DNA of 64,000 nucleotides from Eledone cirrhosa (lineage: Eukaryota): positions 45,198,001 to 45,262,000 of the forward strand of contig OZ024746.1 of the NCBI GenBank assembly GCA_964016885.1, in the 5' to 3' direction. The position numbers were made by a program, and so were the translations under genes. Shown here one piece after another: positions 4,013 to 62,676 of the stretch (position 1 is the first letter of the stretch; each line of letters begins with the position of its first letter). The notes beneath the pieces were generated by a model that did not search any database, was not told the DNA's origin, and saw only the letters and a program-made list of their open reading frames with translations.

Positions 4013-4179
4013 TATATATATATTTATTATAAGAACAGATTAAAGTTTAAGCAAAGAATCGCTGCTTTCACCCTTAACGGGATCTTCTGAACTAAGTATT
4101 GCAACAAAAAAAATAAGATATATATTAGAAAAAATGAGGAAGCTTCGTTTAAATGTATAAGATTGTTATAGTGTATCGA

Positions 4180-10733: not shown

Positions 10734-10922
10734 AGAGTCGTTTAAATAGCCGTCGAAACGGCTTGAGCTCTGCTGTCGGGGTCCTGACTCTTTTCCTATT
10801 ACTGACTCTACTACCCAAAGTATCGAGTACTCGGGTGCGTTATGGTCCACCTGATTCCTTCAGAAGATCCCGTTAAGGGGGAAAGCACCGAGTCTTTGCT
10901 TAAAATTTAATCTGTTATTTTA

Positions 10923-10992
<70 letters not shown>

Positions 10993-10997
<5 letters not shown>

Positions 10998-11452
10998 TAT
11001 CTATACGTACATACATATATGTATACAGACGTACAGTAGTATGTATATATATATACATACATGCACACATATATATATGTATGTATGGATTCACCGAACA
11101 TTTATTATAATGCTCGGTGTGTTTGTAAACAAACATCCCGAATTAAGCCGTACAGTGTCTAGCAACCATCGTTGCTCATTTGTTCAACACTGACAAAGGA
11201 ACGCTGAACTAATAAGCTTGAAATTAGTACAGCGTTCCTTTGTCATAGTTGAACAAATGAGCAACGATGGTTGCTAGACACTGTACGGCTTAATACGGGA
11301 TGTTTGTTTACAAACACACCGAGCATTATAATAAATGTTCGGTGAATCCATACGTACATATATATATGTGTGCATGTATGTATATATATATATATATACA
11401 TACTACTGTACGTCTGAACACATATATGTATGTACCTATAGATACTTATATT
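10993..11452. mobile_element. ~460-bp palindrome, inverted pLTR pair of a hammerhead-bearing family also at 17360-17690 and 20960-21290
   Basis: Arms ~10993-11212 and ~11222-11452 are reverse complements. The centre is AAGCTTGAAATTAGTACAGCGTT, the 3' half of the family's hammerhead. Confidence 0.8.
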
Positions 11453-14651: not shown

Positions 14652-14712
<61 letters not shown>

Positions 14713-14716
<4 letters not shown>

Positions 14717-15426
14717 AATATGAAAACATGGCGTGCTGCGTGGTTGCAAATGGGTTACATACGAATAAATTTAGTCCTTCATCAGTGATCTTCCAGCCTT
14801 CATTGGTATTTCATGGCTTTAAAGACCATATACCTCTGGCTGGTGTGAGCATCTGCTAAAGATAGTCGTTGGGACACGTAAATAGGGGGAACGAGCGAGA
14901 CAGTAAACAAACAGAGATGGTAATGCAACGAAAAGTGAGGAAGAAGGAGTCAAGTCCCTGAAATCGATGAGCATAAGTTCTGTGAAATCGTGGACGAGAC
15001 AGAATAAAGACCATCAAACCTGGTCGAAGTGTGAGTGAGGAAAGAATCTCGCACAGGTCAAACGGGAGGAAGTAGGAGAGGGATTAGCAGAGAGTGAGTG
15101 AATGAAAGTATGAGGAAGAGGCTAACAGAGACTGTGACTGGTAGAGGGGGTAAAAGGAAGTGAGAGATACAGAGAAAAGGAGAAGTAGTAAGAAAGAAAC
15201 AGACGGGTCACAGCGGAGGAAAATATATATGAAAAATATGAAAACATGGCGTACTGCGTGGTTGCATATGGGTTACATATGAATAAATGTAATCCTTCAT
15301 CAGTGATCTTCCAGCCTTCATTGGTATTTCATTGCTTTAAAGACCATATACCTCTGGCTGGTACGAGCAACGGTTAAAGAAAGTCGTTGGGACACGAAAA
15401 ATAGGGGGAACGAGCGAGACAGTAAA
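14713..15426. mobile_element. Direct repeat pair (~195 bp; 14713-14907, 15231-15426) around a purine-rich spacer; end fragment also at ~3854-3892 inverted
   Basis: Visible duplication next to (TA)n. Minus strand has CTGATGA plus a stem but no canonical GAAA. Confidence 0.6.
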
Positions 15427-15485: not shown

Positions 15486-15540
15486 CTGCCTGAAGAGGTC
15501 ACAGCCAATAATAGCTGTCACTGAAATATATATATAGCAG
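15486..15540 (+). ncRNA. Minimal type-I hammerhead ribozyme
   Basis: CTGC-CTGAAGA-GGTcACAGC(caataata)GCTGTcACT-GAAA-TATATATA-TA-GCAG. Stem I CTGC/GCAG, palindromic stem III. Confidence 0.65.
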
Positions 15541-15864
15541 AGAATTTATAATAAACGAAGCCAAATTTAACATGTTTGACTTACTTATTTTATATATATA
15601 TATATATATGTGTGTGTGTGCGTGTGTGTGTCCGTGTATGTGTGTATGTGAGCGTGTCTACGTGTCAGCATGTACATATGTCCCGTATCTTAGCGGTTGA
15701 GCAATACCAAATCGATAAATATAAACCAATTACCAGACGTGAATGAAATGAGGACTGCAATCGGTATACCCAACCAAATCCAATAGATTCGGTGCTACAG
15801 CATGGACGCTGTTGTGGAACTGGAACCAGTAAATGAATAAATGAATATGTGTGTGTATATATAT

Positions 15865-15903
<39 letters not shown>

Positions 15904-15908
<5 letters not shown>

Positions 15909-17074
15909 TATGAAGAGAGAAGAAACATTTAGATATAATTAGTAATAAAATGTATCATACCCAAACTGCTCCTAAATTCCTCGACTACGTAGTTTCGTGG
16001 CATAAACAAAAACAATATATCATAAAGATATAGAGTCCTTGCGAGGTCTGCCGACTTATCAAGAGGATACCTCATTTTACTAGTCTCAAGAACGCGTCCA
16101 CACGACGTGAGAAAGAATCCCAAAAGGCAGAGGGGGAGATAGTCACGCGATATAACCGATGTTGCTCAATGAATGACTGGGACAGACCAATTCAGTTGAA
16201 CTAGACTGAACCAGTATCAGAGTTAAAAATACATTATGAAGAGAGAAGAAACATTTAGATATAATTAGTAATAAAATGTATCATACCCAAACTGCTCCTA
16301 AATTCCTCGACTACGTAGTTTCGTGGCATAAACAAAAACAATATATCATAAAGATATAGAGTCCTTGCGAGGTCTGCCGACTTATCAAGAGGATACCTCA
16401 TTTTACTAGTCTCAAGAACGCGTCCACACGACGTGAGAAAGAATCCCAAAAGGCAGAGGGGGAGATAGTCACGCGATATAACGGTCGAGAAACAGAGCTA
16501 AGCCTCTTATAACCCCGAAGAAAATACCACGGAGGCGGAGGGGGTATTTATATCGAGGCCGTAGAGGAGGTGGTGAAGAAGGCGAGAAGTATGAGTAATG
16601 GAAGCTTTCCAGCTGTCCCCACACTTCAAAGATTGCTCGACCAGAGGGAGTTATTAACAATATATTTAGAAACACACAGATACACGCGGACACACACATA
16701 TATACATGAATTCATCCGCACCCAACTGTGAGTTAAGGGTGCCAACTTCACCGATGTTGCTCAATGAATGACTGGGACAGACCAATTCAGTTGAACTAGA
16801 CTGAACCAGTATCAGAGTTAAAAATACATTATGAAGAGAGAAGAAACATTTAGATATAATTAGTAATAAAATGTATCATACCCAAACTGCTCCTAAATTC
16901 CTCGACTACGTAGTTTCGTGGCATAAACAAAAACAATATATCATAAAGATATAGAGTCCTTGCGAGGTCTGCCGACTTATCAAGAGGATACCTCATTTTA
17001 CTAGTCTCAAGAACGCGTCCACACGACGTGAGAAAGAATCCCAAAAGGCGGAGGGGGAGATAGTCACGCGATAT
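15904..17074 (-). mobile_element. Triple partial-tandem ~250-bp repeat (15904-16154, 16230-16480, 16825-17074), young Penelope-like pLTR/retrozyme array
   Basis: Three virtually identical units, two preceded by the same ~75-bp spacer. Each contains a hammerhead. Confidence 0.8.
15978..16067 (-). ncRNA. Hammerhead ribozyme, U3-A8 core variant (copies also 16304-16393 and 16899-16988)
   Basis: Minus strand: TCCTC-TTGATAA-GTcGGCA...TGCCAC-GAAA-CTACGTAG-TC-GAGGA. Perfect stem I, 8-nt palindromic stem III, GUC triplet. Confidence 0.75.
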
Positions 17075-17115
17075 ATACACATATACACATGCACACATAC
17101 ATACACATCTGTACC

Positions 17116-17157
<42 letters not shown>

Positions 17158-17629
17158 TTATTAAAATAACAGATTAAAGTTTAAGCAAGGAGTCGTTGCT
17201 TTCACCCCTAACGGGATCTTCTGAATCTCTTTTCTTAAATTTTAATCAGTTATTTTAATAAATATTTGCTCTACGGTTCTTATGTATTTGATATATATTT
17301 ATCCTTATCGAGCCCTCTTTGGATTTTAGTCTTCAAATTTATCATTATTACTATATATATAAACGGAAAAAATGAAACGAAATTTCATTTCCCACTCTTA
17401 GTACAGCTGTTACTTAAATATAAGTATGTACACGTACATACATATATGTATACAGACATACAGTAGTATGTATATATATATATATACATACATGCACACA
17501 TATATATATGTACGTATGGATTCACCGAACATTTATTATAATGCTCGGTGTGTTTGTAAACAAACATCCCGTATTAAGCCGTAGTGTCTAGCAACCATCG
17601 TTGCTCGTTTGTTCAACACTGACAAAGGA

Positions 17630-17664
17630 ACGCTGTACTAGTTTCAAGCTATCGTCAGCAACGT
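17630..17664 (-). ncRNA. Hammerhead with collapsed stem II
   Basis: Minus strand: ACGTTG-CTGACGA-TAGCTT-GAAA-CTAG-TA-CAGCGT. Confidence 0.6.
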
Positions 17665-17976
17665 ATAACTTCCTGCCAGATTGTTGATATATATATATAT
17701 ATATTTATTAAAATAAAAGATTAAAGTTTAAGCAAAGAATCGCTGCTTTCAACCTTAATTTTGCGATAGAGAGATTTTAATAACCGAATCTAACTCCAAA
17801 GTCTAATGGATAAATGGTGTATGCTCACCAATATTTGGAATTGTTCAATTCATATTTTTAACATTTAAATACCTCTTCTATACAAACACATATACACATG
17901 CACACATACATACACATCTGTACCGGTATATATATATATTATAAACATACCCACACACACACTCGCGCGCGCACAT

Positions 17977-20958: not shown

Positions 20959-21116
20959 TTGAAAAAAAATGAAAACGAAATTTCATTTCTCACTCTTTCG
21001 TTTTCGGTATGCCTGACCGATTTAACTCACTCAATATGCAAATTAGGCTGCTCAGCCGTTAATTTTCATAAGGAAAGTATATACTTTCGAACGTTCAACT
21101 ATCTGGCAGATGGGTA

Positions 21117-21161
21117 AACGGTGCTGATGATAGCTAACAAGCTTGAAACTAGTACATCGTT
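21117..21161 (+). ncRNA. Minimal type-I hammerhead ribozyme
   Basis: AACGGTG-CTGATGA-t-AGCT(aaca)AGCT-t-GAAA-CTAG-TA-CATCGTT. 7-bp stem I, canonical core, palindromic stem III, GUA triplet. Confidence 0.8.
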
Positions 21162-22260
21162 CCTGTGTCAGTGTTGAACAAAAAGGTGACGTGGTTGCCT
21201 TAACACCGTATGGCATAAATTCAGGCTGTTCGGTTTGTTGACAAACAAACGAACAAAGCGGCGTTATAATAAACGTCGGCTAAACTGATGCGTGCATATA
21301 TGTATGTGTACCTGTATGCATATGTATGTGTATGTGTGTATATATGTATATATATATATGTGTATATATATGTGCATGCTACTGTACGTCTGTATACATA
21401 TATGTATGTACGTATGCATACATACTTACATTTATATATATATATATATATATATATATGGGCGTGTGTGTATGTGGAAATGTATACGTCAGTCTGTGCG
21501 TTTAAATATTGTTAGTGTGACCGCGATTTTCTACTTGTTAATCTAACAGTTTCGACACAAAACAGGTCATAATGGATACCTATCGACATCAAAATACCGC
21601 TTACAAGAAAATATAATTCATTTGTGTTAAAACTCCCAGATTGCTCTGATACCTTTTCTACGCTTTGACATAAATTCACATATGTCATATCTAACTTACA
21701 TCACCTGATTATTATGTACGAATGTGGATTTTCTCACCATAGCACATTGATTTTCAATTGTTGTTTATGGAAATGCGTGCATATAGTGTTTGGAATAATT
21801 TTACTTCTGGATGTTCTGAAGATTGATGTTGAATAAAGTAGACAATATTAAGGGGGACAAGATATGACATAAAATATATGTGCTGAGAATGTGATTTTTT
21901 AGAGAATTTTAACTGATTATAGATATTAATCGGTAATATTGATAATGTATTTTCACATTATTGAAATGATGTAGCGTTTATGTAGACATGATGTTTTGGG
22001 GATAAGTTCATTCGTCCAGATCTCCTAAATGATTTATATTTATAGTAAAGTTTCCAATGATATATGAATTGCCATAATATCTTCCGTGGTGGAGATGTGG
22101 AGCTGAGTTGAGTCAAAACAAGGACATATTGAAACATATAGTTCCTGTAAAATATACCTAAAAGAGAACGAGATGGCCCTGCTGGAACACAGTTTTTTCA
22201 CAGGCGTGCTTGATCAGAGCTTAACTAAAGCTAAGCAAAAACATGAGAAAAGAGTTACAC

Positions 22261-25300: not shown

Positions 25301-27429
25301 AGGATGGTTTGTCCATCCTTTTCACTGCTTGTGGCCTCCTCCGGAAAGATGTCCTTATAAATCCTCCTGGATAGTGTTTGTCGGAAGTCTCCGATGTCTT
25401 TGGGGAATTTTTGTTTTAGTATCGTGTACATTTTCTGTGTGATGCGAGTGATTTGTATGTGAACTTTTGGCTTGTTGTGTAGTCTTTTTTGTGATTCTGG
25501 TGTTGTGTTGGATGTAGTGTAATAATTGGTTGTTGTTCAAATTTAATTGTTTCTACTTTAGGCACAATGCTGTGTAGTGTGTAACGTTTTGGTTGTTTTG
25601 TTTTGTTTGCGTTTGTTGTGGGTTTGTTTCTGTTTCGCTTTCTGGTGACTTTTGTGGTGTAGGTGATGGTGGTTTTGGGGTTAATGATGGTGATGGTGTT
25701 GGTGTTTGTGGTGATGGGGTTGGTGATGCTGCTGTGGATGGTGGCATATCTGTCCTGACTTTTTTGTTTGATAGTTTATTTGTTTTCCTCTGTATTTTGT
25801 TTTTGGAGAGGAAGGAAGATAATTTTTTCTTTTTTGATTTCTTTTTTTCTTTTTTCCTGATACCATTTCCCACACCTCGTCGTCACAATCTGTCTCCAGT
25901 TGTGGCCAGGGAGTGGAAAATCCTCCACAGGCGTTGGTTTTGGTTGTGGCGTGGTGGATGGTGTCGGCGCTGGTGCTAGTTCTGGCGCGTTGGGTGGTGG
26001 TGGTGTTGGTTTTGCTACTGTTGCTGGGGTTGTTGCTGTTACAGTTGCTTCTGTTGTTGCTGCTACAGTTGTTGCTGCCATCTCTGATGCTGGTGGTGTT
26101 GATGGTTGAGTCACTGGGGTGGGTAAGAGAGGTGGCCTCAACCTTTTAGCCTGAGAGCAGAAAGGCCTTAGGTGGGTTCCTTCACAACAAACGACACACC
26201 TATGCCTTCTGCCATCGACGATTACGGTGAGGTGGCTGCCGTCAGTGAAGTCTATTACCTCTGGGATCTCCTCAATGCTTTTTTGGTCCGCTTGGATCAG
26301 GACTTCCATCCCAGATCCGGACCAGTTCTCCTGCTTTTCTTTCGCTATTTCGATTATCTTCGTGTTGGCTTCGATGCCGGCGAGGACGGCCGCTATTAGT
26401 CAGGGAATTTCGATGGCCGGTGGAACGTGGGTGACCCTGATCTTTACGAGTCTCTGGCCACAATAGCTTGGGACGAGTGTGAAGTCGTCACTTCTTAATG
26501 GGGCTATGGAGTGTTCTCTAGCCTCCTGTGGTGTTTCAAAGAACACGTCCACGGTTCCATATTTCTGCCCACGTCTGATGTTGCGTTTTTTTGCCCACAC
26601 ATGTCCCAAAGATTTTGGATTTGGGACTCGGATGCCCGTCCACTCGGCGCGATTTTATGTTAATTGTTCGATAAGCCACGGTGCATAGGCGCCGATGCTC
26701 TATTTTATTAGGTGTGGGGGGGGCTGACCCTGTACCCATCTTTCTTTACCATTTTTTTGGCTTCTTCTAATTCCTCCCGAGTTACCTGAAATGCTTCGCA
26801 CAGTTTTGCTACTCTGGCAAAATTGAGGGTGGTTTTCTTAATTTCATTGTTGCTGTTGTTGTTATCGTTATTTTTGCTATTGTTAATTTTAGTTTCAGTT
26901 GTGGTGGTGGTGGCGTCAGTGGTGTTCGGTGTGGAAGAGTTTATTTTGGTTGAATTCATTTCGATATCACGAGTTAATCTTTTTTCTTTTGTTACTGCTG
27001 TCGTGGTGGGGGGGGGGGGTTGTCGCGGTGGTGGTAGTGGTGGCGGCTTTAACACCTGCAGTCATTGGTAATTGCGGGAAATGAATGTCTGCTTGAGACA
27101 AATTTAAAATATTGCTACTGCTTATAATTTTTGTGTTGGCAAACGTAGTAATATTTACAATGGCGGTGTCGGTGTGAGGTGTTAGTTTGTGAGGAGGACT
27201 GACTCTGCGTCGTCCATGATTTTTCAAAGAAAAATGTTTGTTTGATAATTATAAAAGTTTAAATTTTGGACTCAAGGCCCCAATGTTTTTGGGTGTCCTT
27301 TTCAGATAACAATGTATGTGCACTTATATACAGTTAACAATAAAAATTTCCATAAATGCCATTTTAAACAACTGAAAATAACAAACCTTTGCGGAGCTCA
27401 CAATGATACGATTTACTACGTAGGTCGCC
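22385..27429 (-). mobile_element. Tx1/L1-clade non-LTR retrotransposon copy A (5' module type 1), degenerate, endonuclease deleted
   Basis: Frameshifted ORF1 and ORF2 pieces (RT with QGCPLS, YADD; CCHC). (AAT)n at both ends (22334-22384, 27430-27482). In-frame 744-bp APE deletion at 25128-25132. Confidence 0.95.
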
Positions 27430-27482
<53 letters not shown>

Positions 27483-28264: not shown

Positions 28265-31200
28265 TCGTCTACAGCGTGATGGTGCCACGCTAAAATCACC
28301 GAGGGTGATGAAATCACCGGTGTTATGTAACCATACATTCACCAATCCTCGATATGAGTGTTTCAATGTCGAACCTAAACAGTTCGAATAACGGTGAAGT
28401 GGAGAATGGAATGTCATGTGACAGACTCTCACCCAGCAGGTGCTCCCTGGCTCAGCAACAGGGACCTGGCTGTCAACCAAATACTGCTGGTGTCGGAGGA
28501 AGAAGAAGGATAGAGATCAGAACCAACTGGGTGCAATGTTTCCTGAAGAGTAACCCCAAGGAAAAAGGCTATAGGAAACGGATGCATAACATCTGGAACG
28601 AGATTGGTCTATTTAAATTAGATGAACAAAAATTGGCCGGGTAGGCTCGGGGTAATAAGAACTAATAGGTGGATAAGCGAGCTGGAACTGGAGGAACTTA
28701 GCAGAGAGATTAGGTTGGAAATGGAGAGTGGAGTATGCCAGGCAAACGAGCCAGTGGGAAATGAAGGTGAAGAGATTGAGAGAACGGAGGAACCATCCGA
28801 AGCAGACAATGATCTGAATGCTGAAATAAATAATACCTGGAACAAAGATACGACCATTGAGGAGATGAATGCTGACGGGCTAGGACCAGATTTGGTTGAT
28901 ATCCTAAACTTAGTGGCAGATGAAATGAATAATGATAGTGGGAAACCTATGAACCTAAGATTTGTAGACAGGAAAAAGTTAAAAGAAACAACAGCTAAGG
29001 TAAACAAAGTCATCCCATACCTTGAGGCGAGGAGCCTTCACCAGTGCAACAATATCCTCAAAGCAACAGCAAATGCGGCGAGGAAATTACTTGGCATAAA
29101 AGCGAGAGGAAACAACAAACAAGAAAGATCAGAACCTTAGTGGAAGAAACGACTGAATGGTCAAATCAGGGAAATGACAAATGACATTGGAAAGCTTGAG
29201 TCCCCACTAAAAAACATAGATACTAAAAATAGACTGGAAATAAAGTACAAAACTAGGAGGAAAAAGCTAAATATTATCATAGAGGAAGTGAAGCAACGGA
29301 TTGTAGCAAAGAATGCAAAAATTAGGCGATACGAGAGCAGAGTCAGTCAGTATAGACAGAACCGCATGTTTGACAACAACCAGAAGATGTTGTTTGGACA
29401 GCTTGAAGGGAAAGAAAGAGGCAACGACTTGATCCCTGAGGCGGAGCAAACTAAGACATTCTGGAGAGGAATCTGGGAGCAGGATGTTAAACATAATGAC
29501 CAGGCAGTGTGGATTGAGACAGTACAAAAGGAGATTAGTGAACAGGCGCACCAACAAACTGATTTGAGTATCACAGTTGAAACTCTTAAGGGGCAGGCCA
29601 AAAAACTAACCAACTGGAAATCACCATTAAAAATATAACATCGCTCCACCCGAAACTGACAACCATGTTCAATGACTGTTTGATGTCAGGTGAGGTACCA
29701 GAGTGGTTGACAAAAGGTACCACAGTTCTGGTAATGAAAGACCGAATCAAGGGTAATGATGTTACCAACTATAGACCTATCACATGTGTGTCCGTAATGT
29801 GGGAACTGTTGACAAGCATTGTGTCTGAGGAAATCTACCATCACCTCCACACAAACAACTTGTTACCGGACGAACAGAAAGGATGCCGAAAGAAGTCCCG
29901 TGGTACAAAGGACCAGTTACTTATTGATAAGATGGTAATGAGGAATTGAAAGAGGAGACACACTGGTCTTGCCATGGGATGGATAGACTACAAAAAGGCA
30001 TTTGACATGGTGCCTCATTCTTGGATCACCAAAAGCCTAGAGATCTTCAAGGTGGCAGATAACATCAGACAGTTGTTGAGCAAAAGTATGAAGTCCTGGA
30101 AAACAGAGTTAACATCAGCTGGAGAATCCTTGGGAGGCGTGAATATCAAGAGAGGTATCTTCCAGGGAGATAGTCTGTCCCCTCTGTTGTTTGTCCTTGC
30201 CCTGATGCCCCTGACCATTATACTGCGAAAAGTGAGAGCAGGATACAAGTGGGGAAAGGGAGAGCTTACCATCAATCACCTCCTCTTCATGGAGGATCTT
30301 AAGCTATTCGGGAAGAGTGAGAAGGAGTTGGGTGTGCTTGTTGACAATGTCCGTATTTTCAGCAATGATATATGTATGCAATTTGGTATTAGTAAGAGTC
30401 CTTGTGTTGAAGAGGGGTAAATTGAGCAGAGCAACGGAATCCAGGTACCAACAGGTGAGATGATAAAGGGAATTGACACTGAAGAAGGATACAAGTATTT
30501 GGGTATTCTGGAGGCTGATGACATCAAGAACAAAACAATGAAGGAATTGATAAGATCTGAATACATTCGGAGAGTAAAGAGCGTATTAAAGTCACATTTG
30601 AACTGTAGGAATGCCATAAGTGCAGTAAATTCCCGAGCTGTGTCTATTATTAGGTACAGTGCGGGAATTCTGAGATGGAATGTTGCTGAACAAAAAGAAA
30701 TGGATAGGAAGACTAGGAAGTTATTGACTATCTACAACATGTTCCACAAGAGGAGTGATGTCGATAGACTCTACTTAAGAAGATCTGAAGGGGTAAGAGG
30801 TTTATCAGCATAGAGGACTGTGTTCAGATGGAGAAAAACAACCTACACAAATACGTGACTTATAGTAAGGAGCCAATGCTCAGAACTGTACTGAAGGAGA
30901 GGACAATAGACCAGGGTATGTCCAAGGAGGAAATAACAACAAGGAGAAAGAGCAGCCTTCATGAAAAGACCCTTCATAGTACCTTCTTTGAGAAAACGGA
31001 ATTCAGGGATCCACAGACATGGAACTGGTTGAAATGAGGAGACCTTAAAAAGGCTACAGAAGGAATGCTAATGGCTGCGCAAGAGCAGGACCTCAAAACG
31101 AAGTGGTTGAAACACCATATTTACAAAGAGGAGGCTATCCCTCTGTGCAGGATCTGTGGAGAGAGAGAGGAGACTGTGGCTCACATTGTATCCGAGTGTA

Positions 31201-31757
31201 AACCCCTAGCCCAGATTCACTATGGGCAGGGTGATCCACTAGCACCAATTTACCACATTCTGAGAAGTGGTATGAGCATAAACCAGAGTCGGTGATAGAA
31301 AACGATCAGGTGAAGGTGCTGTGGGGTTTTAGGATACAGACGGACAAGAAACTGGAACACAATAGACCTGACCTGGTGGTTTTGGACAAGGAAAGAAGAT
31401 CGTGCCTGATTGTGGATGTGGCCAGCCCATTCGACACAAGAGTGCAAGAGAAGGAGAGGGAGAAAATTAACCGATACCAGGACTTAAAGTGGGAGGTAAA
31501 AAGGATTTGGAACTGCCATGAAGTCAAAGAGGTCCCGATTGTCATAGGCGTACTAGGTACTATCTCAAAAAGTTTCCAGGGATGGTTAAAGAAAATTGGC
31601 TCCTTCACGCTTTTTGAAAGGCTTCAAAAGGCATGCTTGCTGGGAACAGCAAGAACTCTCCGATACGTCCTGAATATCTGAGGCTGCAGGTAGTGGCTTA
31701 ATATTCATTTCATCAAACTTTACAGTTAACTAACATCAATGACTGAGACTCAAAGAA
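28265..31757 (+). mobile_element. R4/Dong-clade (RLE) non-LTR retrotransposon copy B, near full length, inactivated
   Basis: Single broken ORF 28354-31681: N-terminal Myb-like region, RT ([34 protein letters not shown]), CCHC CRICGEREETVAHIVSEC, and restriction-like endonuclease NRPDLV...VDVA...EKINRYQDL. (TAA)n tail at 31759-31806. Confidence 0.92.
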
Positions 31758-31758
31758 C

Positions 31759-31797
<39 letters not shown>

Positions 31798-32050: not shown

Positions 32051-35000
32051 TTACAGACACATACTCAGAGAAGGCCCATTCATTCGGGCCATACTTGCTT
32101 CTCTCACCCATCTTTCAACAAAATGCTGGGAAGAGAGCACTTCCCTCTCTACCCTGATTTTCCTTTTCAAATGAAATTTGAAAAAGTTAATCAGGGCATC
32201 ACCGAAGAGGTAAGTGCTCGTCTTCAGCCCTTTCAAACGTGTCCACCATACTATCTCTTTCGCCATGGCCACCAGACAGATAAAAACTGCCTGCCCTTCC
32301 AGGCTAAAGGAAGGGGGCGGGGCAATCCTCACGATGGACTCAGCTGATAGCCGGATCCGTCCTACACGTGACAGCAGGTGTTCGACATAAACCCACAAGT
32401 CAGCAATGATCGGACACTGGACGAGTGCGTGCAGGACGGTTTCGTCGCCCTGCGCGCATCTCGGACATGCCCGGCTGACAGCACCTCCATGCCTGTAGAG
32501 TTTATCCCGAACTGGCAAAGCTCCTCGGTAGCACTGCCAGGCCAGGGATTTCTGGAAGTTGTCCATAGGCCCCGGCCCGAAAGTCCTTCCGAAGAGACTG
32601 GCTAGTTGATTTTCGTCGACGCCTAGAGTTTCTCCAAGTACGTCGTCGCTCTTCCCCTCCACTAATCCCCTATAGAACGCCAAGGTGGAGTTTCCACCGA
32701 TCACATTGCCCGATTGGTCGAGGGCTGTGAGCGCCTGAAGACATTCCAGTCTCCAAGCGCTCCCTCTCGGTCTTCGCTTGACCCAGGACTGCAGCTCCGT
32801 CAAGGAGACGAGCTGAGGAAAAACGCGTCTTGCAAACGGCGACCACACCTGATCACCGTCGAGGAAGAGGTGGAGATGTCGTAGCCTGAGCGCGTGTCTG
32901 CGCATCATTAGCCACGGCATGCCCAGCCCTCCACGTAGCGGGTGTTGACAGCAGATGGACCGCCTGACCATCGGAGCGCGTCCCTTCCACAAGAAGCGAA
33001 AGAGCAAACGCTCCAGCGCAGTCAGGCGGGGCTTAGGACAAGGTACGACGGTCAGGCGGTAGTAGATGACGGATGCGATGTACGCATTCGCCACCTCCGC
33101 TCGACCTTTCAGGGATAGCTTCCTCTCGGCCCATTTCTGGGTGAGATAAGCCACCCTGCTCGTCACCTCGTCCCAGTTTTTGTCCGTCTGGAGGTCTGGA
33201 CCGAACCAGACCCCTAGCAATTTAACCGGTCCGTCCGTCCAGCGCCCGACGACGCTGTTGGACGGCATGGACCTGCCTCTCCAGGTGCCGAGCTGCAGGC
33301 CCACTGACTTTTCCTGGTTGATCATTGCTCCTGTCACCGCTTCGTATTCTCTTAGTGTAGTACCGATCGCCTCGATGTGTTTGGCGTTCGACACCACTAC
33401 GGTGACATCGTTGGCATATGCTGACACGGATCTTCCGCATCTTAGTTCGCGCGGGACCCCCCTCAACGTCTCCAGTTTGTGCAGTAATGGCTCGAGAGTC
33501 AATACGTACAATAGGGACGAGAGGGGACATCCTTGGCGGACCGAGCGCATGATGTTGAACGGTTCCGAAAGGTGACCGTTCACTCTCACTACAGAGCAGA
33601 TGTCGCTGTGCATGGCAGCGATCCAGCCTCTGAAGACGGGCCCAAAGCCAGCCGCCCTCAGGACTGCCGCTAGGTAACGATGGTCGACCCTATCGAAGGC
33701 TTTCGACTGATCTAAATTGATCAAAGACCCACCCGTGCCAGGTTCCCTAGCTACCCTCTCTACGATGTATCGCATGAGGTGGAGGTTGTCGTGGATGGAT
33801 CTGTCGGGAATGGCGCATGTCTGCGCCTCTCCCACCAGACCACCAACGACAAGCGCCAACCTCTTTGCTAGCACCTTGGCCAAAATCTTAAACTCTGTGT
33901 TTAGCAGAGTTATGGGCCTAAAATTATCTATGGTATCCCCCTTGTTCGGATCCTTTCTCAGCAGCGCCACCGCTCCTCGGCTCACAGAGCTGGGAATTCT
34001 CCCGTTCTGTTGCCAGTTGCAGTAGACGTCCGCCAAGAGGCCTCCGAACAAGTTTGGCATTTGTACGTAAAGTTCATAGGGGAGACCATCCAAACCAGGC
34101 GATTTACCCCTTGTGCAACTAGTCATTGCATCCCGTACTTCAGCGGTTGTTATCGGCTTTTCGCAACACTCCGCCTCAGTGGCCGAAAGCCGCGGCAGTC
34201 CGTCGAGGTAGACACTAAAGTCCATCCCTCTACCCGGCCCCCCGCTGCCCCCGAACAGCTGAGCGAAGTGTCGCTGAAAAGCTTCACACATTTGCCCGGG
34301 ATCGAGTAGCATGCGCCCGTCGTGGTCCACCAAAGACCGGATCGTGGCTTTGTTGCCACGACGCGCCTCCGCCACTCGGGCCCATTGAACGGCTTTCGTC
34401 CCCTCGTGTCTGAGAGCACGCACCCTAGCTCTGACAACGCAGCCTTCGTGCTTTGCATTGAAGAATTGGTCAAGAGCCAATTTCGCCGCAAGTACGTCGG
34501 TCGCGATGCCTTTGCTAAGCGCCTCATCTAATTTTCTAACTAATTCTCCCTCTACTCTATTTTTCTCTATTGCTAAAGTCTTACTAAACCTAATGGACTC
34601 TATTCTAATTGCTCTTTTCAGAGCAAACCACCACTTGTTGTTGACGATGCCCCCCGTCAACGCCCGCTTAACTAGTTCGCTAATCCGGTCTCTGTAGGCC
34701 TTGCGCGCTGGTAAGGACGCGTTTAGCTTCCAATAGCCGGGTCCTCGTCTATGAAGCCTATCTAAGTCAAGCACACAGATCACGAATTTGTGGTCCGTGT
34801 AGCTGACTATCTTGAATTGTGGACAGCCTATGCTAGACCTATCTATTTCCCTACAAAATACTCTATCTAGATATGATCTGGATGACCCTATGCGATTTGT
34901 CCAAGTCCACATTGGTACATTCGGGAAATCCATTCGGTACCTGTCAGACAGTTCAAAACGTCTGAGCAGGTTGGTGAGACTCTTGCACCCTCCTTCCCTA

Positions 35001-35470
35001 TCCACTAATCCCACACAATCCCAGCGTGCATCTAAGATCCCGTTCCAGTCGCCCACTAACACTAAAGAGCGGGACGTTCCAAGAAAGGTCTCCAGACGCC
35101 GGAAGAAATCAGGCCGCCCTGCTCCTGTCGGGGCATAGACGGCCACTAACCTGAAAGCTTTCCCGTCTCCGCTGGTCACGTCCAGCACCACCAACTTACC
35201 TTCTGGGTCCAGGAAGATGGCCCGTATGGCAAGATCCAAACCTCTCCGAAAAAGCACAGCAACTCCTCCCCCCGATCCCGGACGGCTGGGAGATGCGTAC
35301 ACATCGTAGCCGCCGAAGATCGGTGCGAAAGCCTGTGCTTCGGAGATTCTGGTCTCGCTGATGGCCACTACATCCATGTTTAGTGACCTGAGGTCGTTGA
35401 GCAGGTGGCCCTGCTTCCATGACGACCCCAAGCCACGCGCATTTATGCTGCCTATTCTGAGTGAGGTCAT
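32051..35470 (-). CDS. ORF2 polyprotein: APE endonuclease + reverse transcriptase + C-terminal CCHC (1139 aa); catalytic YADD mutated to YAND
   Basis: SINARGL, ISETR, VYAP, GDWN, SYLDR, TDH (APE). KSPGLDG, FRPITLLN, DQSKAFDRV, QGCPLS, YAND (RT). CPRC...H...C. Confidence 0.95.
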   Translation of the reverse strand: MTSLRIGSINARGLGSSWKQGHLLNDLRSLNMDVVAISETRISEAQAFAPIFGGYDVYASPSRPGSGGGVAVLFRRGLDLAIRAIFLDPEGKLVVLDVTSGDGKAFRLVAVYAPTGAGRPDFFRRLETFLGTSRSLVLVGDWNGILDARWDCVGLVDREGGCKSLTNLLRRFELSDRYRMDFPNVPMWTWTNRIGSSRSYLDRVFCREIDRSSIGCPQFKIVSYTDHKFVICVLDLDRLHRRGPGYWKLNASLPARKAYRDRISELVKRALTGGIVNNKWWFALKRAIRIESIRFSKTLAIEKNRVEGELVRKLDEALSKGIATDVLAAKLALDQFFNAKHEGCVVRARVRALRHEGTKAVQWARVAEARRGNKATIRSLVDHDGRMLLDPGQMCEAFQRHFAQLFGGSGGPGRGMDFSVYLDGLPRLSATEAECCEKPITTAEVRDAMTSCTRGKSPGLDGLPYELYVQMPNLFGGLLADVYCNWQQNGRIPSSVSRGAVALLRKDPNKGDTIDNFRPITLLNTEFKILAKVLAKRLALVVGGLVGEAQTCAIPDRSIHDNLHLMRYIVERVAREPGTGGSLINLDQSKAFDRVDHRYLAAVLRAAGFGPVFRGWIAAMHSDICSVVRVNGHLSEPFNIMRSVRQGCPLSSLLYVLTLEPLLHKLETLRGVPRELRCGRSVSAYANDVTVVVSNAKHIEAIGTTLREYEAVTGAMINQEKSVGLQLGTWRGRSMPSNSVVGRWTDGPVKLLGVWFGPDLQTDKNWDEVTSRVAYLTQKWAERKLSLKGRAEVANAYIASVIYYRLTVVPCPKPRLTALERLLFRFLWKGRAPMVRRSICCQHPLRGGLGMPWLMMRRHALRLRHLHLFLDGDQVWSPFARRVFPQLVSLTELQSWVKRRPRGSAWRLECLQALTALDQSGNVIGGNSTLAFYRGLVEGKSDDVLGETLGVDENQLASLFGRTFGPGPMDNFQKSLAWQCYRGALPVRDKLYRHGGAVSRACPRCAQGDETVLHALVQCPIIADLWVYVEHLLSRVGRIRLSAESIVRIAPPPSFSLEGQAVFICLVAMAKEIVWWTRLKGLKTSTYLFGDALINFFKFHLKRKIRVEREVLSSQHFVERWVREASMARMNGPSLSMCL

Positions 35471-35504
35471 GTTGAAAAGGAGTGGAAAAGATGGGAAAGA
35501 CCAC

Positions 35505-37475
35505 TTACCTTACTTCTCGTAGGAGAAGGACGGCTTTTCCATCCTTTTCACTGCTTGTGGCCTCCTCAGGAAGGATGTCCTTATAAATCCTCCTGGAGAG
35601 TGCTTGTCGGAAGTCTCCGATGTCTTTGGGGAATTTTTGTTTTAGTGTCATGTACGTTTTCTGTGTGATGCGAGTGATTTGTATGTGTGGAGGTGGTGTG
35701 AATTTTGGGGTTGTTGTGTAGTCTTTTTCTGTGATGCTGGTGTTGTTCAAATTTAATGCTGTGTAGTGTGTATCGTTTTGGTTGTTTTGTTTTGTTTGCG
35801 TTTGTTGTGGGTTTGTTTCTGTTTCGTATTTTGGTGACTTTTGTGGTGTAGGTGATGGTGGTGCTGGGGATAATGATGGTGATGGTGTTGGTGTTTGGGT
35901 TGATGGGGTTGGTGATGCTGGTGTGGATGGTGGCATATCTGTCCTAACTTTTTTGTTTCTTAGTTTATTTGTTTCCCTCTGTATTTTGTTTTTGGAGGGG
36001 GAAGGAAGAGAATTTTTTTCTTTTTTGGTTTCTTTTTTTTTTTCCGGATATCGTTTCCCACTCCTCGTCGTCACAATCTGTCTCCAGTTGTGATAGGCCG
36101 GGGAGTGGAAAATCCTCCACAGCCGTTAGTTTTGGTTGTGGTGTGGTGGATGGTGTAGGCGCTGGTGCTTGTTCTGAAGCGTTGGGTGGTGGTGGTGTTG
36201 GTTTTGCTGGTGGTGGTAGTGGTGTTGGTTTTGCTACTGTTGCTGGGGTTGTTGCTGTTATAGTTGCTTCTGTTGTTGCTGCTACAGTTGTTGCTGGCAT
36301 CCCTGCTACTGGTGGTGTTGATGGTTGTGTCACTGGGGTGGGTAGGAGAGGTGGCCTCAACCTTTTAGCCTGAGGGCAGAAAGCCCTTAGGTGGGTTCCT
36401 TCACCACAAACGACACATCTAGGTGTTCTGCCCTCGACAATTACCGTGAGGTGGCTGCCGTCAGTGAGGTCTATTACCTCTGGGATCTCCTCAATGCTTT
36501 TTTGGTCCGCTTGGATCAGGAGCTCCATCCCAGATCCGGACCAGTTTTCCTGCTTTTCTTTTGCTATTGTTATTATCTTCGTGTTGGCCTCGATGCCGGC
36601 GATGACAGCCGCTATTAGCCAGGGAATTTCGATGGCCGGTGGAACGTGGGTCACCCTGATCTTTACGAGTCTCTGGCCACAATAGCTTGGGACGAGTGTG
36701 AAGTCGTCACTTTTTAATGGGGCCATGGAGTGTTCTCTAGCCTCCTCTGGTGTTTCAAAGAACACATCCACGGTTCCATACTTTTGCCCACGTCTGATGT
36801 GGGTTTTTCTTGCCCACACATGTCCCAAAGCTTTTTGGATTTGGGACTCGGATGCCCGTTCCACTCGGCGCGATTTTACATTTATTGTTCTATACGACAC
36901 GGTGCACAGGCGCCGATGCTCCATTTTATTAGGTGGGGGGGGGGGGGGGGGTGAGGCTGACCCTGTACCCATCTTTCTTTACCATTTGTTTGGCATTTTC
37001 TAAATCTTCTTGAGTTACCGTGAACGCTTCGAATTGTTTTGCTACGATGGCGAAACTGAGGGTCGGTTTTATAATGTCATTGTTGTTGTTGTTGCTATCG
37101 TTAATATTAATTTTATTTTCAGTTGTGCTGGTGGTGACGTCAGTTGTCTTTGGTGGGGAAGAGTCCATTTTGCTTGATTTCATTTCGACGTCACGAGTTA
37201 ATTTATTTTTTTCTTCTTTTGTTTCTGTTGTCGCGGTGGTGGTGGTGGTGGTGGTGGTTGTCGCGGTGGTGGTGGTGGTGGAGGGTTTAACACCTGCAGT
37301 CATTGGTAATGGCGGGAAATGAATGTCTGCCTGAGACAAATTTAAAATATTGCTACTGCTTATATTTTTTTTTTGTGTTGGCAAACGTAGTAACATTTAC
37401 AATGGTGGTGTCGGTGTGAGGTGTTATTTTGTGAGGAAGGCTTTCAGCTGCTTCGTGCAGAGGGGAATTAGCCAT
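35505..37475 (-). pseudogene. ORF1 type 1 (gag-like, RRM-like region + single CCHC knuckle, Pro/Thr-rich), frameshifted, partly at homopolymer runs
   Basis: Pieces 36929-37396, 35965-36972 and 35505-36074. Knuckle CVVCGEGTHLRAFC. One shift lies at the G-run 36935-36951. Confidence 0.85.
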
Positions 37476-37684
37476 TTTTTTTCAAAGAAATTTTTGGATA
37501 ATAATAAAAGTTAAAATTTTGGGCACAAGGCCCCAATCTTTTTGGGTGTCCTTTTCGGAAAACAATGTATGTGTGCTTATAAACAGTTTACAATAAAATT
37601 TTCCATAAATGGCAATTTTTAAACAAACGGAAATAACAAACCTTTGCGGAGCTCACGATAATACGATTTCCTACGTAGGTCGCC

Positions 37685-37729
<45 letters not shown>

Positions 37730-38661
37730 AACAATTCCCTAAATGTATAGTGGTTTCATTTAGCATCAGGAAACAATTTTTTGAAACGATGATTTTTTGA
37801 AAATATGTCTGTCTATTATTTTCATTGATCATGAATAACTTGGATAGAAAGATACCTATCAGCTTCTTCCGTTATGCTGTATCTGTTTCCATTACGTGAA
37901 ACCTGGACAGGCAATAAAGATATTCCTATAGAATGTGATATAAGCGATTATTGGGGACAGAAAAATATTAACGATATTTACTTATACGAAAGAAAATAAT
38001 CTATTTGACATGAAGAAGATATGATCATTTTCACAACACTGAGCAAATAAATAATACATAGAAAACACACCTTTAAATTACTAACCAGAATAGTTTAATA
38101 CTGAATCTATATAACCAAATAGCTGCAGTTCAATATCAATATTTCTACATCAGATGTTGCCAGAGAAACTCTCTTAACATGACACAAATAATAACATCAA
38201 ATATTTTGTTAGTTTCAAATTACAATTGAATGAATTAGTTGCCGGAAAATGTGTAGTCTGCATATGCACGGAATTGCCATGTCGCACCTAGATATTATAT
38301 AATTTAGATCTACACTGTCGAACTGAGTAAAATTACTACGAAGAAAGATAAAGTAATAGAAAGGTGTTATATAACTCGATATTGATCAACTGAATAGACA
38401 AAGTTATTAAAATCTATAGAAACAAAACATGTTCTTTAATTAATATATTATGTCTAACTGATCGAAACATAATAATTAAAGAGACTGAAAAGAATACTGA
38501 CATTTTAACCTGCTGATAAATGTATCAAATATTGAAAGTGTGAAATAAGGAAAAAGAAAATATATCACTAAACATATACCATGCCAGTATATTGCACATC
38601 CAGTTATATTGGTTCCGAAAAAACTATACACATTTGCATGACAAGTTATTTCTGGTATACC

Positions 38662-51900: not shown

Positions 51901-54713
51901 TCTTGAATTGTGGACAGCCTATGCTAGACCTATCTATTTCCCTACAAAATACTCTATCTAGATATGATCTGGATGACCATATGCGATTTGTCCAAGTCCA
52001 CATTGGCACATTCGGGAAATCCAATCGGTACCTGTCAGACAGTTTAAAACGCCTGAGCAGTTTGGTGAGACTCTTGCACCCTCCTCCCCTATCCGCTAAT
52101 CCCACACAATCCCAGCGTGCATCTAAGATCCCGTTCCAGTCGCCCACTAACACTAAAGAGCGGGACGTTCCAAGAAAGGTCTCCAGACGCCGGAAGAAAT
52201 CAGGCCGCCCTGCTCCTGTCGGGGCATAGACGGCCACTAACCTGAAAGCTTGGCCGTCTCCGCTGGTCACGTCCAGCACCACCAACTTACCTTCTGGGTC
52301 CAGGAAGATGGCCCGTATGGCGAGATCCAAACCTCTCCGAAAAAGCACAGCAACTCCTCTCAACGATCCCGGACGGCTGGGAGATGCGTGCACATCGTAG
52401 CCGCTGAAGATCGGTGCGAAGGCCCGTGCTTCGGAGATTCTGGTCTCGCTGATGGCCACTACATCTATGTTTAGTGACCTGAACTGGTTGAGCAAGTGGC
52501 CCTGTTTCCATGACGACCCCAAGCCACGCGCATTTATGCTGCCTATTCTGAGTGAGGTCATGTTGAAATGGAGTGGAAAAGATGGGAAAGACCACTTACC
52601 TTACTTCTCGCAGAGGTAGGACGTTTTCTCCATCCTTTTAACTGCTCGTGGCCTGCTCAGGAAGGATGTTCTTATAAATCCTCATGGAGAGTGCTTGTCG
52701 GAAGTCTCCGATGTCTTTGGGGAATTTTTGTTTTAGTGTCATGTACGTTTTCTGTGTGATGCGAGTGATTTGTATGTGTGGAGGTGGTGTGAAATTATGG
52801 GTTGTTGTGTAGTCTTTTTCTGTGATGCTGGTGTTGTGTTGGATGTAGTGTAATAATTGGTTGTTGTTCAAATTTAATGCTGTGTAGTGTGTATCGTTTT
52901 GGATATTTTGTTTTGTTTGCGTTTGTTGTGGTTTTGTTTCTGTTTCGCTTTTTGGTGACTTTTGTGGTGTAGGTGATGGTGGTGTTGGGGTTAATTATCG
53001 TGATGGTGTTGGTGTTTGGGGTGATGGGGTTGGTGATCCTGGTGTGGATGGTGGCATATCTGTCCTAACTTTTTTGTTTGATAGTTTATTTGTTTCCCTC
53101 TGTATGTTGTTTTTGGAGGGTGAAGGAAGAGAATTTTTTTCATTTTTGGTTTCTTTTTTTCTTTTTTCCTGATACCGTTTCCCACACCTCTTCGTCACAA
53201 TCTGTCTCCAGTTGTGGCCAGGGAGTGGAAAATCCTCCACAGGCGTTGGTTTTGGTTGTGGTGTGGGGGATGGTGTAGGCGCTGGTGCTAGTTCTGGCGC
53301 GTCGGGTGGTGGTGGTGTTGGTTTTGCTACTGTTGCTGGGGTTGTTGCTGTTACAGTTGCTTCTGTTGTTGCTGCTACAGTTGTTGCTGCCATCTCTGAT
53401 GCTGGTGGTGTTGATGGTTGAGTCACTGGGGTGGGTCAGAGAGGTGTGGCCTCAACCTTTTAGCCTGAGGGCAAAAAGCCCTTAGGTGGGTTCCTTCACC
53501 ACAAACGACACACCTAGGCCTTCTGCCCTCGACAATTACGGTGAGGTGGCTGTCGTCAGTGAGGTCTATTACCTCTGGTATCTCCTCAATGCTTTTTTGG
53601 TCCGCTTGGATCAGGAGCTCCATCCCAGATCCGGACCAGTTCCCCTGCTTTTCTTTCGCTATTTCGATTATCTTGGTGTTGGCCTCGATGCCGGCGAGGA
53701 CGGCAGCTATTAGCCAGGGAATCTCGATGGCCGGTGGAACGTGGGTGACCCTGATCTTTACGAGTGTCTGGTCACAATAGCTTGGGACGAGTGTGAAGTC
53801 GTCACTTCTTAATGGGGTCATGGAGTGTTCTCTAGAATCCTGTGGTGTTTCAAAGAACACGTCCACAGTTCCATACTTCTGCCCACGTCTGATGTGGGTT
53901 TTTTTTGCCCACACATGTCCCAAAGCTTTTTGTATTTGGGACTCGGATGCCTGTTCCACTCGGCGCGATTTTATATTAATTGTTCGATAAGACATGGTGC
54001 ATAGGCGCCGACGCTCCATTTTATTAGGCTGACCCTGTACCCATCTTTCTTTACCATTTTTTTGGCTTCTTCTAATTCCTCCTGAGTTACCTGAAATGCC
54101 TCGCACTGTTTTGCTACTCTGGCAAAACTCAGGGTGGTTTTCTTAATGTCATTGTTTCTGTTGTTGTTATCCTTGTTTTTGTTATAATTAATTTTAGTTT
54201 CAGTTGTGGTGGTGGTGGCGTCAGTGGTGTTCGGTGTGGAAGAGTTCATTTATGTTGAATTCATTTCGATATCACGAGTTAATTTATTTTTTCTTTTGTT
54301 TCTGTTGTCGCTGTGGTGGTGGTGTTGGTGGCGGCTTTATCACCTGCAGTCATTGGTAATGGCGGGAAATGAACTTCTGCCTGAGACAAATATTGCTACT
54401 GCTTACATTTCCAGTGTTGGCAAACGTAGCAATATTTACAACGGTGGTGTCGGTGTGAGGGGTTAGATTGTGAGGAAGGAGTGACTCTGAGTCATCCATG
54501 ATTTTTCAAAGACAAATTTTTGTTTGATAATTATAAAAAGTTTAAATTTTGTGCTCAAGGCCCCAATATTTTTGAGTGTCCTTTTCAGAAATCAATGTAT
54601 GTGCACTTATATAGTTAACAATAAAAATTTTCCATAAATGGCAATTTTAAACAACTGAAAATAACAAACCTTTTCCGGAGCTCACGATGATACGATTTAC
54701 TATGTAGGTCGAC
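48974..54713 (-). mobile_element. Tx1 copy F (5' module type 1), full length but multiply frameshifted; AATAAA signal deleted
   Basis: Fragmented ORF1/ORF2. (AAT)n 54714-54756 at the 5' end. 3' end reads gatttcacaagg instead of gatttctttattaaccacaagg. Confidence 0.95.
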
Positions 54714-54756
<43 letters not shown>

Positions 54757-61088: not shown

Positions 61089-61090
<2 letters not shown>

Positions 61091-62648
61091 CAACTATAGA
61101 CCTATCACATGTCTGTCCGTAATGTGGAAACTGTTGACAAGCATTGTGTCTGAGGAAATCTACCATCACCTCCACACAAACAACTTGTTACCGGATGAAC
61201 AGAAAGGATGCCGAAAGAAGTCCCGTGGTACAAAGGACCAGATACTTATAGATAAGATGGTAATGAGGAATTGCAAGAGGAGACACACTGGTCTTGCCAT
61301 GGGATGGATAGACTACAAAAAGGCATTTGACATAGTGCCTCATTCTTGGTTCACCAAAGGCCTAGAGATCTTCAAGGTGGCAGATAACATCAGACAGTTG
61401 TTGGGCAAAAGTATGAAGTCCTGGAAAACAGAGTTAACATCAGCTGGAGAATCCTTGGGAGACGTGTAGATCAAGAGAGGTATCTTCCAGGGAGATAGTC
61501 TGTCTCCTCTGTTGTTTGTCCTTGCCCTGATGCCCCTGACCATTATACTGCGAAACGTGAGAGCAGGATACAAGTTGGGAAAGGGAGAGCTTACCATCAA
61601 TCACCTCCTCTTCATGGACGATCTTAAGCTCTTCGGGAAGAGTGAGAAGGAGTTGGATGTGCGTGTTGACACTTCGTATTTTCAACAATGATATATGTAT
61701 GTAATTTGGTATTAGTAAGTGCGGGGTCCTTGTGATGTAGAGGGGTAAATTGAGCAGAAGCAACGGAATCCAGGTACCAACAGGTGAGATGATAAAGGAA
61801 ATTGAAAAGAGCAGCCTTCATGAAAAATCCCTTCATAGTACCTTCTTTGAGAGAACTGAATTCAGAGATCCACAGAAATCGAACTGGTTGAAAAGAGGAG
61901 ACCTTAAAAAGGCTACAGAAGGAATGTTAATGGCTGCGCAAGAGCAGGTCCTCAAAACGAAGTGCTTGAAACACCATATTTACAAGGAGGAGGCTAGCCA
62001 ATGTGCAGGATCTGTGGAGAGAGAGAGAGGAAACTTTGGCTCCCATTGTATCCGAGTGTAAACACCTAGCCCAGACTCACTATAAGGGCTGGAGACATGA
62101 TGTCATGGGCAGGGTGATCCACTGGCACCTATGCAAAGTAAACAATTTACCACATTCTGAGAAGTGGTATGAGCATAAGCCAGAGTCGGTGTTAGAAAAC
62201 GATCAGGTGAAGCTGCTGTGGGGTTTCAGGATACAGACGGACAAGGGAACACAATAGACCTGACCTGGTGGTTTTGGACAAGGAAAAAAGATCGTGCCTG
62301 ATTGTGGATGTCGCCTTCCCATTCGACACGAGAGTGCAAGAGAAGGAGAGGGAGAAAATTAACCGATACCAGGACTTAAAGTGGGAGGTAAAAAGGATTT
62401 TGAACTGCCATGAAGTCAAAGTGGTCCCGATTGTCATAGGCGCACTAGGTACTATCTCAAAAAGTTTCCAGGTATGGTTAAAGAAATTGGCCCCGCCACG
62501 CTTTTTGGAACGCTTGAAAAGGCATGCTTGCTGGGAACAGCAAGAACCCTCCGATACGTCCTGAATATCTGAGGTTGCAGGTAGTGGCTTGATATTCATT
62601 TCAACAAACTTTCCAGTTAACTAACATCAATGACTGAGACTCAAAGAG
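61089..62648 (+). mobile_element. 5'-truncated Dong copy I (same family as B) inserted in the (TAA)n tail of H
   Basis: Starts at accaactatagacc (= B 29764). Retains FMDD and RHD. Internal ~470-bp deletion at ~61805. Same 3' end as B. Confidence 0.92.
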
Positions 62649-62676
62649 TAATAACAACAATAATAATAATAATAAT

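Follow-up and report, generated by a model that had tools for sequence, protein, structure and literature searches.

Hammerhead motifs with a U3-A8 core in a high-copy, non-coding 595-nt repeat of Eledone cirrhosa

A 64,000-nt stretch of the Eledone cirrhosa genome (assembly GCA_964016885.1, contig OZ024746.1, forward-strand positions 45,198,001 to 45,262,000; hereafter the window) contains three near-identical segments, each with a motif that resembles a hammerhead ribozyme and reads UUGAUAA at the place of the usual CUGANGA core. Such an arrangement raises the question of what kind of repeat carries these motifs, how large its unit is, and whether the motifs can be expected to cut the RNA in which they lie. 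The answer that we hold with good confidence is that a high-copy, non-coding 595-nt repeat has inserted here once. This repeat is likely a non-LTR retrozyme (a non-autonomous Penelope-like element), which would have been copied into a (TA)n tract by a helper RT, and cutting by its U3-A8 hammerheads is predicted to require that they pair up.

Anatomy of the insertion

The insertion occupies 15903..17075 on the minus strand and reads, from 5' to 3', R(252) - body(343) - R(252) - 74-nt body remnant - R(252), followed by (TA)n. R is a pLTR-like, hammerhead-bearing terminal repeat of 252 nt, present in three copies on the minus strand, here called A, B and C. The parts are as follows.

16481..17075, minus strand: full 595-nt family unit (R plus body), delimited by read depth across the whole stretch and by a joint going back 595 nt in public runs X5 and X11
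16824..17075, minus strand: R copy A, whose 5' end abuts host TA-rich sequence
16823-16481, minus strand: body
16483..16751, minus strand: 269-nt part of the body, kept between A and B and deleted between B and C
16229..16480, minus strand: R copy B
16155..16228, minus strand: 74-nt body remnant in the deleted (326-nt) unit
15903..16154, minus strand: R copy C, whose 3' end lies 80 nt beyond the cut site and is joined to (TA)n
15856..15905, strand not given: (TA)n microsatellite, likely the target site

An earlier note on this DNA, made from its letters, had described a triple tandem. The three hammerhead copies are indeed there, but the tandem is not uniform: the cut sites are spaced 595 and 326 nt apart, and the leftmost copy is just 252 nt long. 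About two units are present, flanked by microsatellites. The 326-nt unit is what remains of the 595-nt unit once 269 nt are taken out, and 2 nt of microhomology mark the joint (16155-16156). The ends of the insertion lie 80 nt and 171 nt from cut sites, and neither end coincides with one. In the window's ORF list no ORF of at least 150 aa overlaps the 595-nt unit (GC 0.42), the frames of the 269-nt spacer being open only over short distances, and neither an inverted copy nor a 30-40 bp tail was identified at the insertion.

The window is rich in short tandem repeats, chiefly di- and trinucleotide, and LINE-type ORFs (RVT_1, Exo_endo_phos, zf-RVT) make up 10 of the 18 window ORFs scanned; these 18, from 45 listed, gave no match to GIY-YIG families. 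The minus strand carries, at 22636-54439 and 63080-64000, a LINE cluster with no fewer than six related copies or fragments (endonuclease, RT, zf-RVT), 81-96% identical to the copy at 32051-37400; three members of this cluster end at (TAA)n with the same adjoining sequence, and from its domain order we take the cluster to be Tx1/L1-like. Fragments of another RT-bearing element, 89-95% identical, are found on the plus strand at 29764-31788 and 61089-62679, and a common sequence of about 75 nt, which may represent another repeat's 3' end or its target, precedes (AAT)n at 27403-27480, 37658-37735 and 54687-54756. Short dispersed repeats immediately to the right of the element (17158-17225, 17510-17650 and 17705-17758) recur at 4024-4091, 10859-10926, 11079-11357 (an inverted pair) and 21095-21250. 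On the opposite strand, about 370 nt from the element, a second and unrelated type I hammerhead (15486-15536, plus strand) has the canonical core CUGAAGA, a UA site and a palindromic stem III made up of A and U only; it occurs as a single copy in the window, and its palindrome pairs in the predicted dimer. Close by, two copies of a repeat of about 200 nt (14705-14907 and 15223-15426; 91-93% identical, 518 nt apart) carry a minus-strand CUGAUGA without GAAA behind it, possibly marking a decayed hammerhead repeat.

The hammerhead motifs: predicted folding and variation

Three type I hammerheads lie on the minus strand of the element, with U3 at 16983, 16388 and 16062 and C17 (of GUC) at 16904, 16309 and 15983.

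16899..16988, minus strand: hammerhead A, C17 at 16904
16304..16393, minus strand: hammerhead B, C17 at 16309
15978..16067, minus strand: hammerhead C, C17 at 15983
16988-16984 with 16903-16899, minus strand: stem I of hammerhead A (5 bp)
16983-16977, minus strand: core of hammerhead A, U3 to A9
16976-16918, minus strand: stem II of hammerhead A, a 59-nt domain (16918..16976) predicted to consist of 2 bp, a bulged C, 4 bp, an internal loop, an irregular 8-bp stem and a distal hairpin at 16953-16937
16917-16914, minus strand: GAAA of hammerhead A
16914-16905, minus strand: palindromic stem III of hammerhead A

Each motif combines a 5-bp stem I, the core UUGAUAA (U3-A8), G10.1-C11.1, GAAA and a 10-nt palindromic stem III, and in all motifs checked G10.1 follows A9 directly (offset 0). 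The marks of a type I core, namely a Watson-Crick 3-8 pair, GAAA and a UH cut site, are present in all three copies, so that each of the consecutive tandem units (at least two being expected of a retrozyme) has its own type I hammerhead. A single position differs among the copies (17050 versus 16455/16129). The earlier note is borne out in its claim that UUGAUAA occurs in every one of the near-identical copies, and its reading of a U3-A8 hammerhead within a retrozyme-like repeat is supported. None of 3000 dinucleotide shuffles of the 595-nt unit yielded a hammerhead under the same rules. The Rfam hammerhead models had no match in the window at gathering score and were absent from the 28 matches to E 10, in agreement with the claim that standard searches miss the motif; the miRNA-type matches obtained were far under their gathering scores and fell mainly on TA-rich sequence.

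Folding was predicted at equilibrium and without tertiary contacts. Stem II is predicted to form one long irregular stem-loop, at -23.3 kcal/mol. The note had drawn it with two extra hairpins, one of which, the distal UAUAUC/GAUAUA hairpin, reappears with a pair probability of 0.98-1.0, whereas the other, CCU-cgca-AGG, has a probability of 0.0; the branched two-hairpin form, at -13.9 kcal/mol, is 9.4 kcal/mol worse and was rejected on these two counts. Stem III, which the note overlooked, is a perfect 10-nt palindrome with a predicted +1.5 kcal/mol as a hairpin and -12.9 kcal/mol as a duplex. Because it is a perfect palindrome, a double hammerhead is the predicted active form, and this is also the unconstrained best fold of two 91-nt motif copies (-62.5 kcal/mol, against -48.8 for two monomers). 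Within the 91-nt motif, three helices open at stem I come within 1.1 kcal/mol of the free fold, and G10.1-C11.1 is weak (probability 0.16). In full-length transcripts the predicted probability of stem I is near 0, and two hairpins compete for its arms.

16984..16994, minus strand: predicted decoy hairpin engaging the stem I 5' arm, the same in copies B and C, with a probability of 0.67-0.98 across the contexts folded
16833..16903, minus strand: long hairpin on the 3' side of the cut site, predicted to capture the stem I 3' arm, with a probability of 0.81-0.97 once transcribed

One active site lies a predicted 0.9 kcal/mol above the best fold (probability 0.12) in an RNA ending just behind the second copy, and is 5.7 kcal/mol worse than the best fold in the finished R-body-R RNA. 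As a circle, the 595-mer has 42% GC, is 63% paired and reaches a z of -5.15 (15 shuffles), and the sequence features of retrozymes (no ORF of at least 150 aa, GC under 45%, strong self-pairing) are all found.

These predictions suggest a mechanism. The palindromic stem III of two tandem copies would pair to give a double hammerhead in which U3-A8 preserves the 3-8 pair. Since stem I would be blocked by the hairpins on either side, the finished RNA would stay closed, and cutting would be confined to the transcription of the second copy and probably be slow. Cut 595-nt monomers would then circularise, circles or uncut multimers serving as template as in known retrozymes, and a Penelope-like RT/endonuclease acting in trans would prime at (TA)n about 80 nt beyond the cut site and copy more than one unit. 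The private 326-nt unit may have been made by one template jump or by a later deletion. Sequence-level features make membership of the non-LTR retrozymes, or non-autonomous Penelope-like elements, likely; cutting, circles and helper we infer from known systems.

From 24 listed public runs, four (X1, X5, X11 and X22) were compared with 16470-17090, and variants were counted where they reached 5% or more in the three of these runs that cover the core. At this threshold no variant is listed at 16896-16938 and 16945-17019, which comprise the core, both stem I and stem III, and the proximal part of stem II. As there is no variant row in the core, U3-A8 is the majority state of the family: it is the family norm and not a private mutation, a C3-G8 subfamily below 5% being possible. 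The note had named a CUGAUGA family consensus, with the present copies as private mutants, as the outcome that would count against it; this was not observed, as no variant row is listed at 16977-16983 at the 5% threshold in the three runs. Two variants within the motif leave the distal hairpin intact, one turning U-A into U-G and the other making the loop 2 nt shorter.

The variants offer weak support for the structure. The counts leave aside eight of the 38 variant rows, those of the microsatellite-like stretch 16660-16710, and the related copies behind them are not independent. Of the 22 variants that fall at paired sites, the pair survives in 12 and is lost in 10, and no two-sided compensatory change was seen. 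Transitions keep the pair in 12 of 14 cases (0.59 expected, p 0.035), and 18 of 20 do no harm (p 0.10); transversions at paired sites break it in eight of eight. Low variation spans the whole of 16896-17076 (2 of 181 positions, versus 28 of 363; p 0.001) and, as it extends beyond the ribozyme, does not prove selection on cleavage.

It is conceivable, if on the whole unlikely, that the hammerhead is a passenger derived from a Penelope terminal repeat, hardly cutting at all, in a mobile element that uses uncut transcripts as templates. The distances of 80 nt and 171 nt between insertion ends and cut sites, the intact copying of three such sites and the predicted sequestration of stem I in full transcripts would all follow. 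Outside this locus, eight of the nine Xenopus dimers tested in a bioRxiv preprint (10.64898/2026.07.22.740005) remained uncleaved, and a passage of PMC8557442 calls hammerhead function in EN+ elements unclear. However, a mere passenger would not lead one to expect that the core, stem I, stem III and the proximal part of stem II should be free of listed variants where the other scored positions show 29 in 454 (Fisher p 0.043), nor that the double hammerhead should be the free best fold of an isolated pair, and intact sites are expected from circular templates too. The preferred reading is a likely non-LTR retrozyme predicted to cut in pairs.

The family in public runs

In X1, 1950 contigs give a summed depth of about 0.9-5.9 x 10^5 over 16470-17078, the 269-nt part included, as against 54 in the flank; this sum does not measure copy number as such, and depths of 7-18 are found for the single divergent contigs that are listed. 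From it we infer a family that probably has thousands of copies, and the high copy number of a non-LTR retrozyme is thus matched by an X1 summed depth of about 10^5, read as depth and not as a count of copies. A head-to-tail joint going back 595 nt occurs in two of the four runs compared: in X5 its depth is 163.3, next to a neighbouring depth of 166.3, and X11 has the same joint, which fits a circle or tandem DNA equally. Neither a 326-nt nor a skip-269 joint is listed in the three runs that cover the element, contigs showing presence and not absence. Cleavage at the two left-hand copies would, as the note proposed, release 326 nt, but by the read evidence the family unit is 595 nt, and the 326-nt unit is a 269-nt deletion that appears in none of the runs covering the element.

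Loose (AT)n ends at 16824 in 11 X1 contigs mark the same 3' end as that of the last copy in the window. Median X1 depth is 265k in R (11 of 12 rows), 309k at 16510-16557 (5 rows) and 120k farther up (10 of 13 rows), with the rows at 16884, 16614, 16789 and 16712 (the last at 411k, beside the microsatellite-like part) and eight microsatellite-like rows left out. Depth is thus greater over roughly the last 350 nt before the 3' end than farther up, which fits 5' truncation, albeit noisily. Together with the partial tandem, the fixed 3' end and the microsatellite target, a variable 5' truncation of this kind, its depth gradient noisy, completes the Penelope-like pattern. Past 17075, two X1 contigs run into different upstream sequence (median 143 loose letters, agreement 0.63) and may lead to a sister family or to the autonomous partner.

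At least 0.25 of the element's words occur in 15 of the 24 listed runs, labelled as 12 organisms. No RNA data set is listed among those that contain them, which carries no information on expression. X11, labelled as another organism, has the element at a depth of 2-13 in few contigs, with majority letters identical to those of X5; X22, again another organism (1,938 million letters of raw reads), has 12 reads, all on the microsatellite-like part. As carry-over or mixed samples explain these runs equally well, we make no claim of horizontal transfer. A scan with a 19-nt pattern returned none among viral contigs and two metagenome contig stretches (L001 and L002; GC 0.57 and 0.67), which were rejected as chance since only 19-20 nt match.

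The 5' boundary of R coincides with a possible promoter.

16475..16511, minus strand: TATA-like box (16511-16504) plus initiator (+1 at 16479), both candidates, at the 5' edge of R, a post hoc consensus match only

This is the sole TATA-plus-initiator pair in 16157-17076, and 44 of 2000 shuffles hold such a pair anywhere; the pattern is what we take to be the usual one and was chosen after the place had been seen. The 5' end of R copy A (17075) and that of copy C at the deletion joint (16154-16156) agree to within 2 nt in register, and both adjoin the pair. An RT that runs off the 5' end of the RNA and then jumps would account for the coincidence. As the family's usual 5' end the pair was weakened as a candidate, in that nearly all X5 depth crosses the boundary and depth in X1 remains high as far as about 16550; because the X5 joint carries 163.3 of a depth of 166.3, the boundary is not where family members usually begin. 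A bolder and rather unlikely extension would make the double hammerhead self-gated: a U3-A8 core and a 59-nt stem II domain fixed in an abundant family, two competing hairpins that leave only a co-transcriptional window for cutting, and an element that moves on uncut transcripts from its own TATA/initiator, the coincident 5' boundaries reflecting RT run-off and a jump. If true, the role of hammerheads in Penelope-like elements would be directly testable in one small element.

We think it improbable that the 595-nt unit belongs to a longer, autonomous Penelope-like element as its 3' terminus, with the locus made up of stacked 5'-truncated ends. The fall in depth away from the 3' end and the two X1 contigs that extend beyond 17075 would suit such an origin, and partial tandems are described as typical of these elements in PMC8557442; yet the unit closes on itself at 595 nt, as the nearly full depth of the X5 joint and its recurrence in X11 attest, and overlaps no ORF of at least 150 aa. 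Very improbable, in our judgement, is a satellite-like tandem repeat spread by recombination with the ribozyme motif as a relic: head-to-tail joints do occur in the runs, and the preprint (10.64898/2026.07.22.740005) includes a discussion of local tandem amplification, but only about two units lie here between microsatellites, 11 contigs have the common 3' end at (AT)n, and depth is uneven along the unit. The earlier version, a 326-nt retrozyme with a monomeric hammerhead and a branched stem II, is hardly tenable, for although the B-to-C cut spacing is 326 nt and a circular 326-mer folds well (z -3.77, 40 shuffles), no joint of that size is listed where even a single-contig 112-nt skip is, the CCU/AGG hairpin is not predicted to form, and stem III is unstable as a monomer.

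Relation to known hammerhead-bearing elements

The U3-A8 core has precedents, and the novelty that the earlier note implied for it was set too high. Natural U3-A8 cores were reported by Perreault et al. in 2011 (PMC3088659, where their in vitro activity is cited), and the text of PMC4209133 describes about 1,300 hammerheads of this variant in Schistosoma mansoni, found in a search that started from a Penelope-like element; row S. mansoni 3 of its supplement has the same UUGAUAA core. The compensatory change at 3-8 is the same as in the hammerheads of PMC3088659, active in vitro there and here part of a predicted motif that is fixed in an abundant animal repeat.

Several known systems resemble the element. 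Animal non-LTR retrozymes, as portrayed in PMC7229834 and 10.64898/2026.07.22.740005, likewise consist of tandem units that are non-coding and that all bear a type I hammerhead; their GC is under 45%, their self-pairing strong and their copy number high, and they have been proposed to be non-autonomous derivatives of Penelope-like elements. At 595 nt the present unit exceeds the circular retrozyme RNAs of 170-400 nt given in PMC7229834, yet falls inside the preprint's range of 51-972 bp for families that are linked to pLTRs; one of nine Xenopus dimers tested there cleaved. In contrast to these retrozymes, the element here has the U3-A8 core and the 59-nt stem II domain.

With the pLTR hammerheads treated in PMC4209133 the element shares the U3-A8 core UUGAUAA, a short helix I, a helix II bulge of the D. 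virilis type and a palindromic helix III that requires a dimer. The same source describes palindromic helix III in elements of shrimp, rotifer, Drosophila and mosquito, reports that helix II is bulged in D. virilis and puts activity in vitro as low; dimeric cleavage is summarised in PMC6765202. The differences are three: there is no extra nucleotide between A9 and G10.1, the helix II insert is far larger than the 6-8 bp described in that source, and, unlike the metazoan Penelope-like elements it covers, no RT-endonuclease ORF lies between the repeats.

As for the manner of insertion, partial tandems, 5' truncation, microsatellite targets, a target duplication that is not discernible and non-autonomous head-to-tail copies all recall the Penelope-like insertions of PMC8557442, which gives their insertion pattern and mentions non-autonomous Chlamys elements. 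The (TA)n bias in that source, however, is that of Naiads, which lack canonical hammerheads, and the inverted copy and the 30-40 bp tail have no counterpart identified here. Three exact motifs of the element are absent from the supplement of PMC8557442, and a fourth matched once, in an unrelated context. In the literature covered, with PMC7151607 and PMC3884650 as background only and with subscription journals and Repbase outside its scope, neither the 595-nt family nor so large a stem II insert is described in the parts consulted.

The element adds a high-copy family of retrozyme type that covariance models and CUGANGA searches miss. As such searches pass it over, counts of ribozyme-bearing repeats in animal genomes are underestimated, an argument that was made for Schistosoma in 2014. 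Since it is small, has a U3-A8 core that occurs naturally and a stem II insert of large size, and is predicted to form competing hairpins, the element is also a handy object for testing cutting of the Penelope type, and whether the cut or the uncut transcript serves as template.
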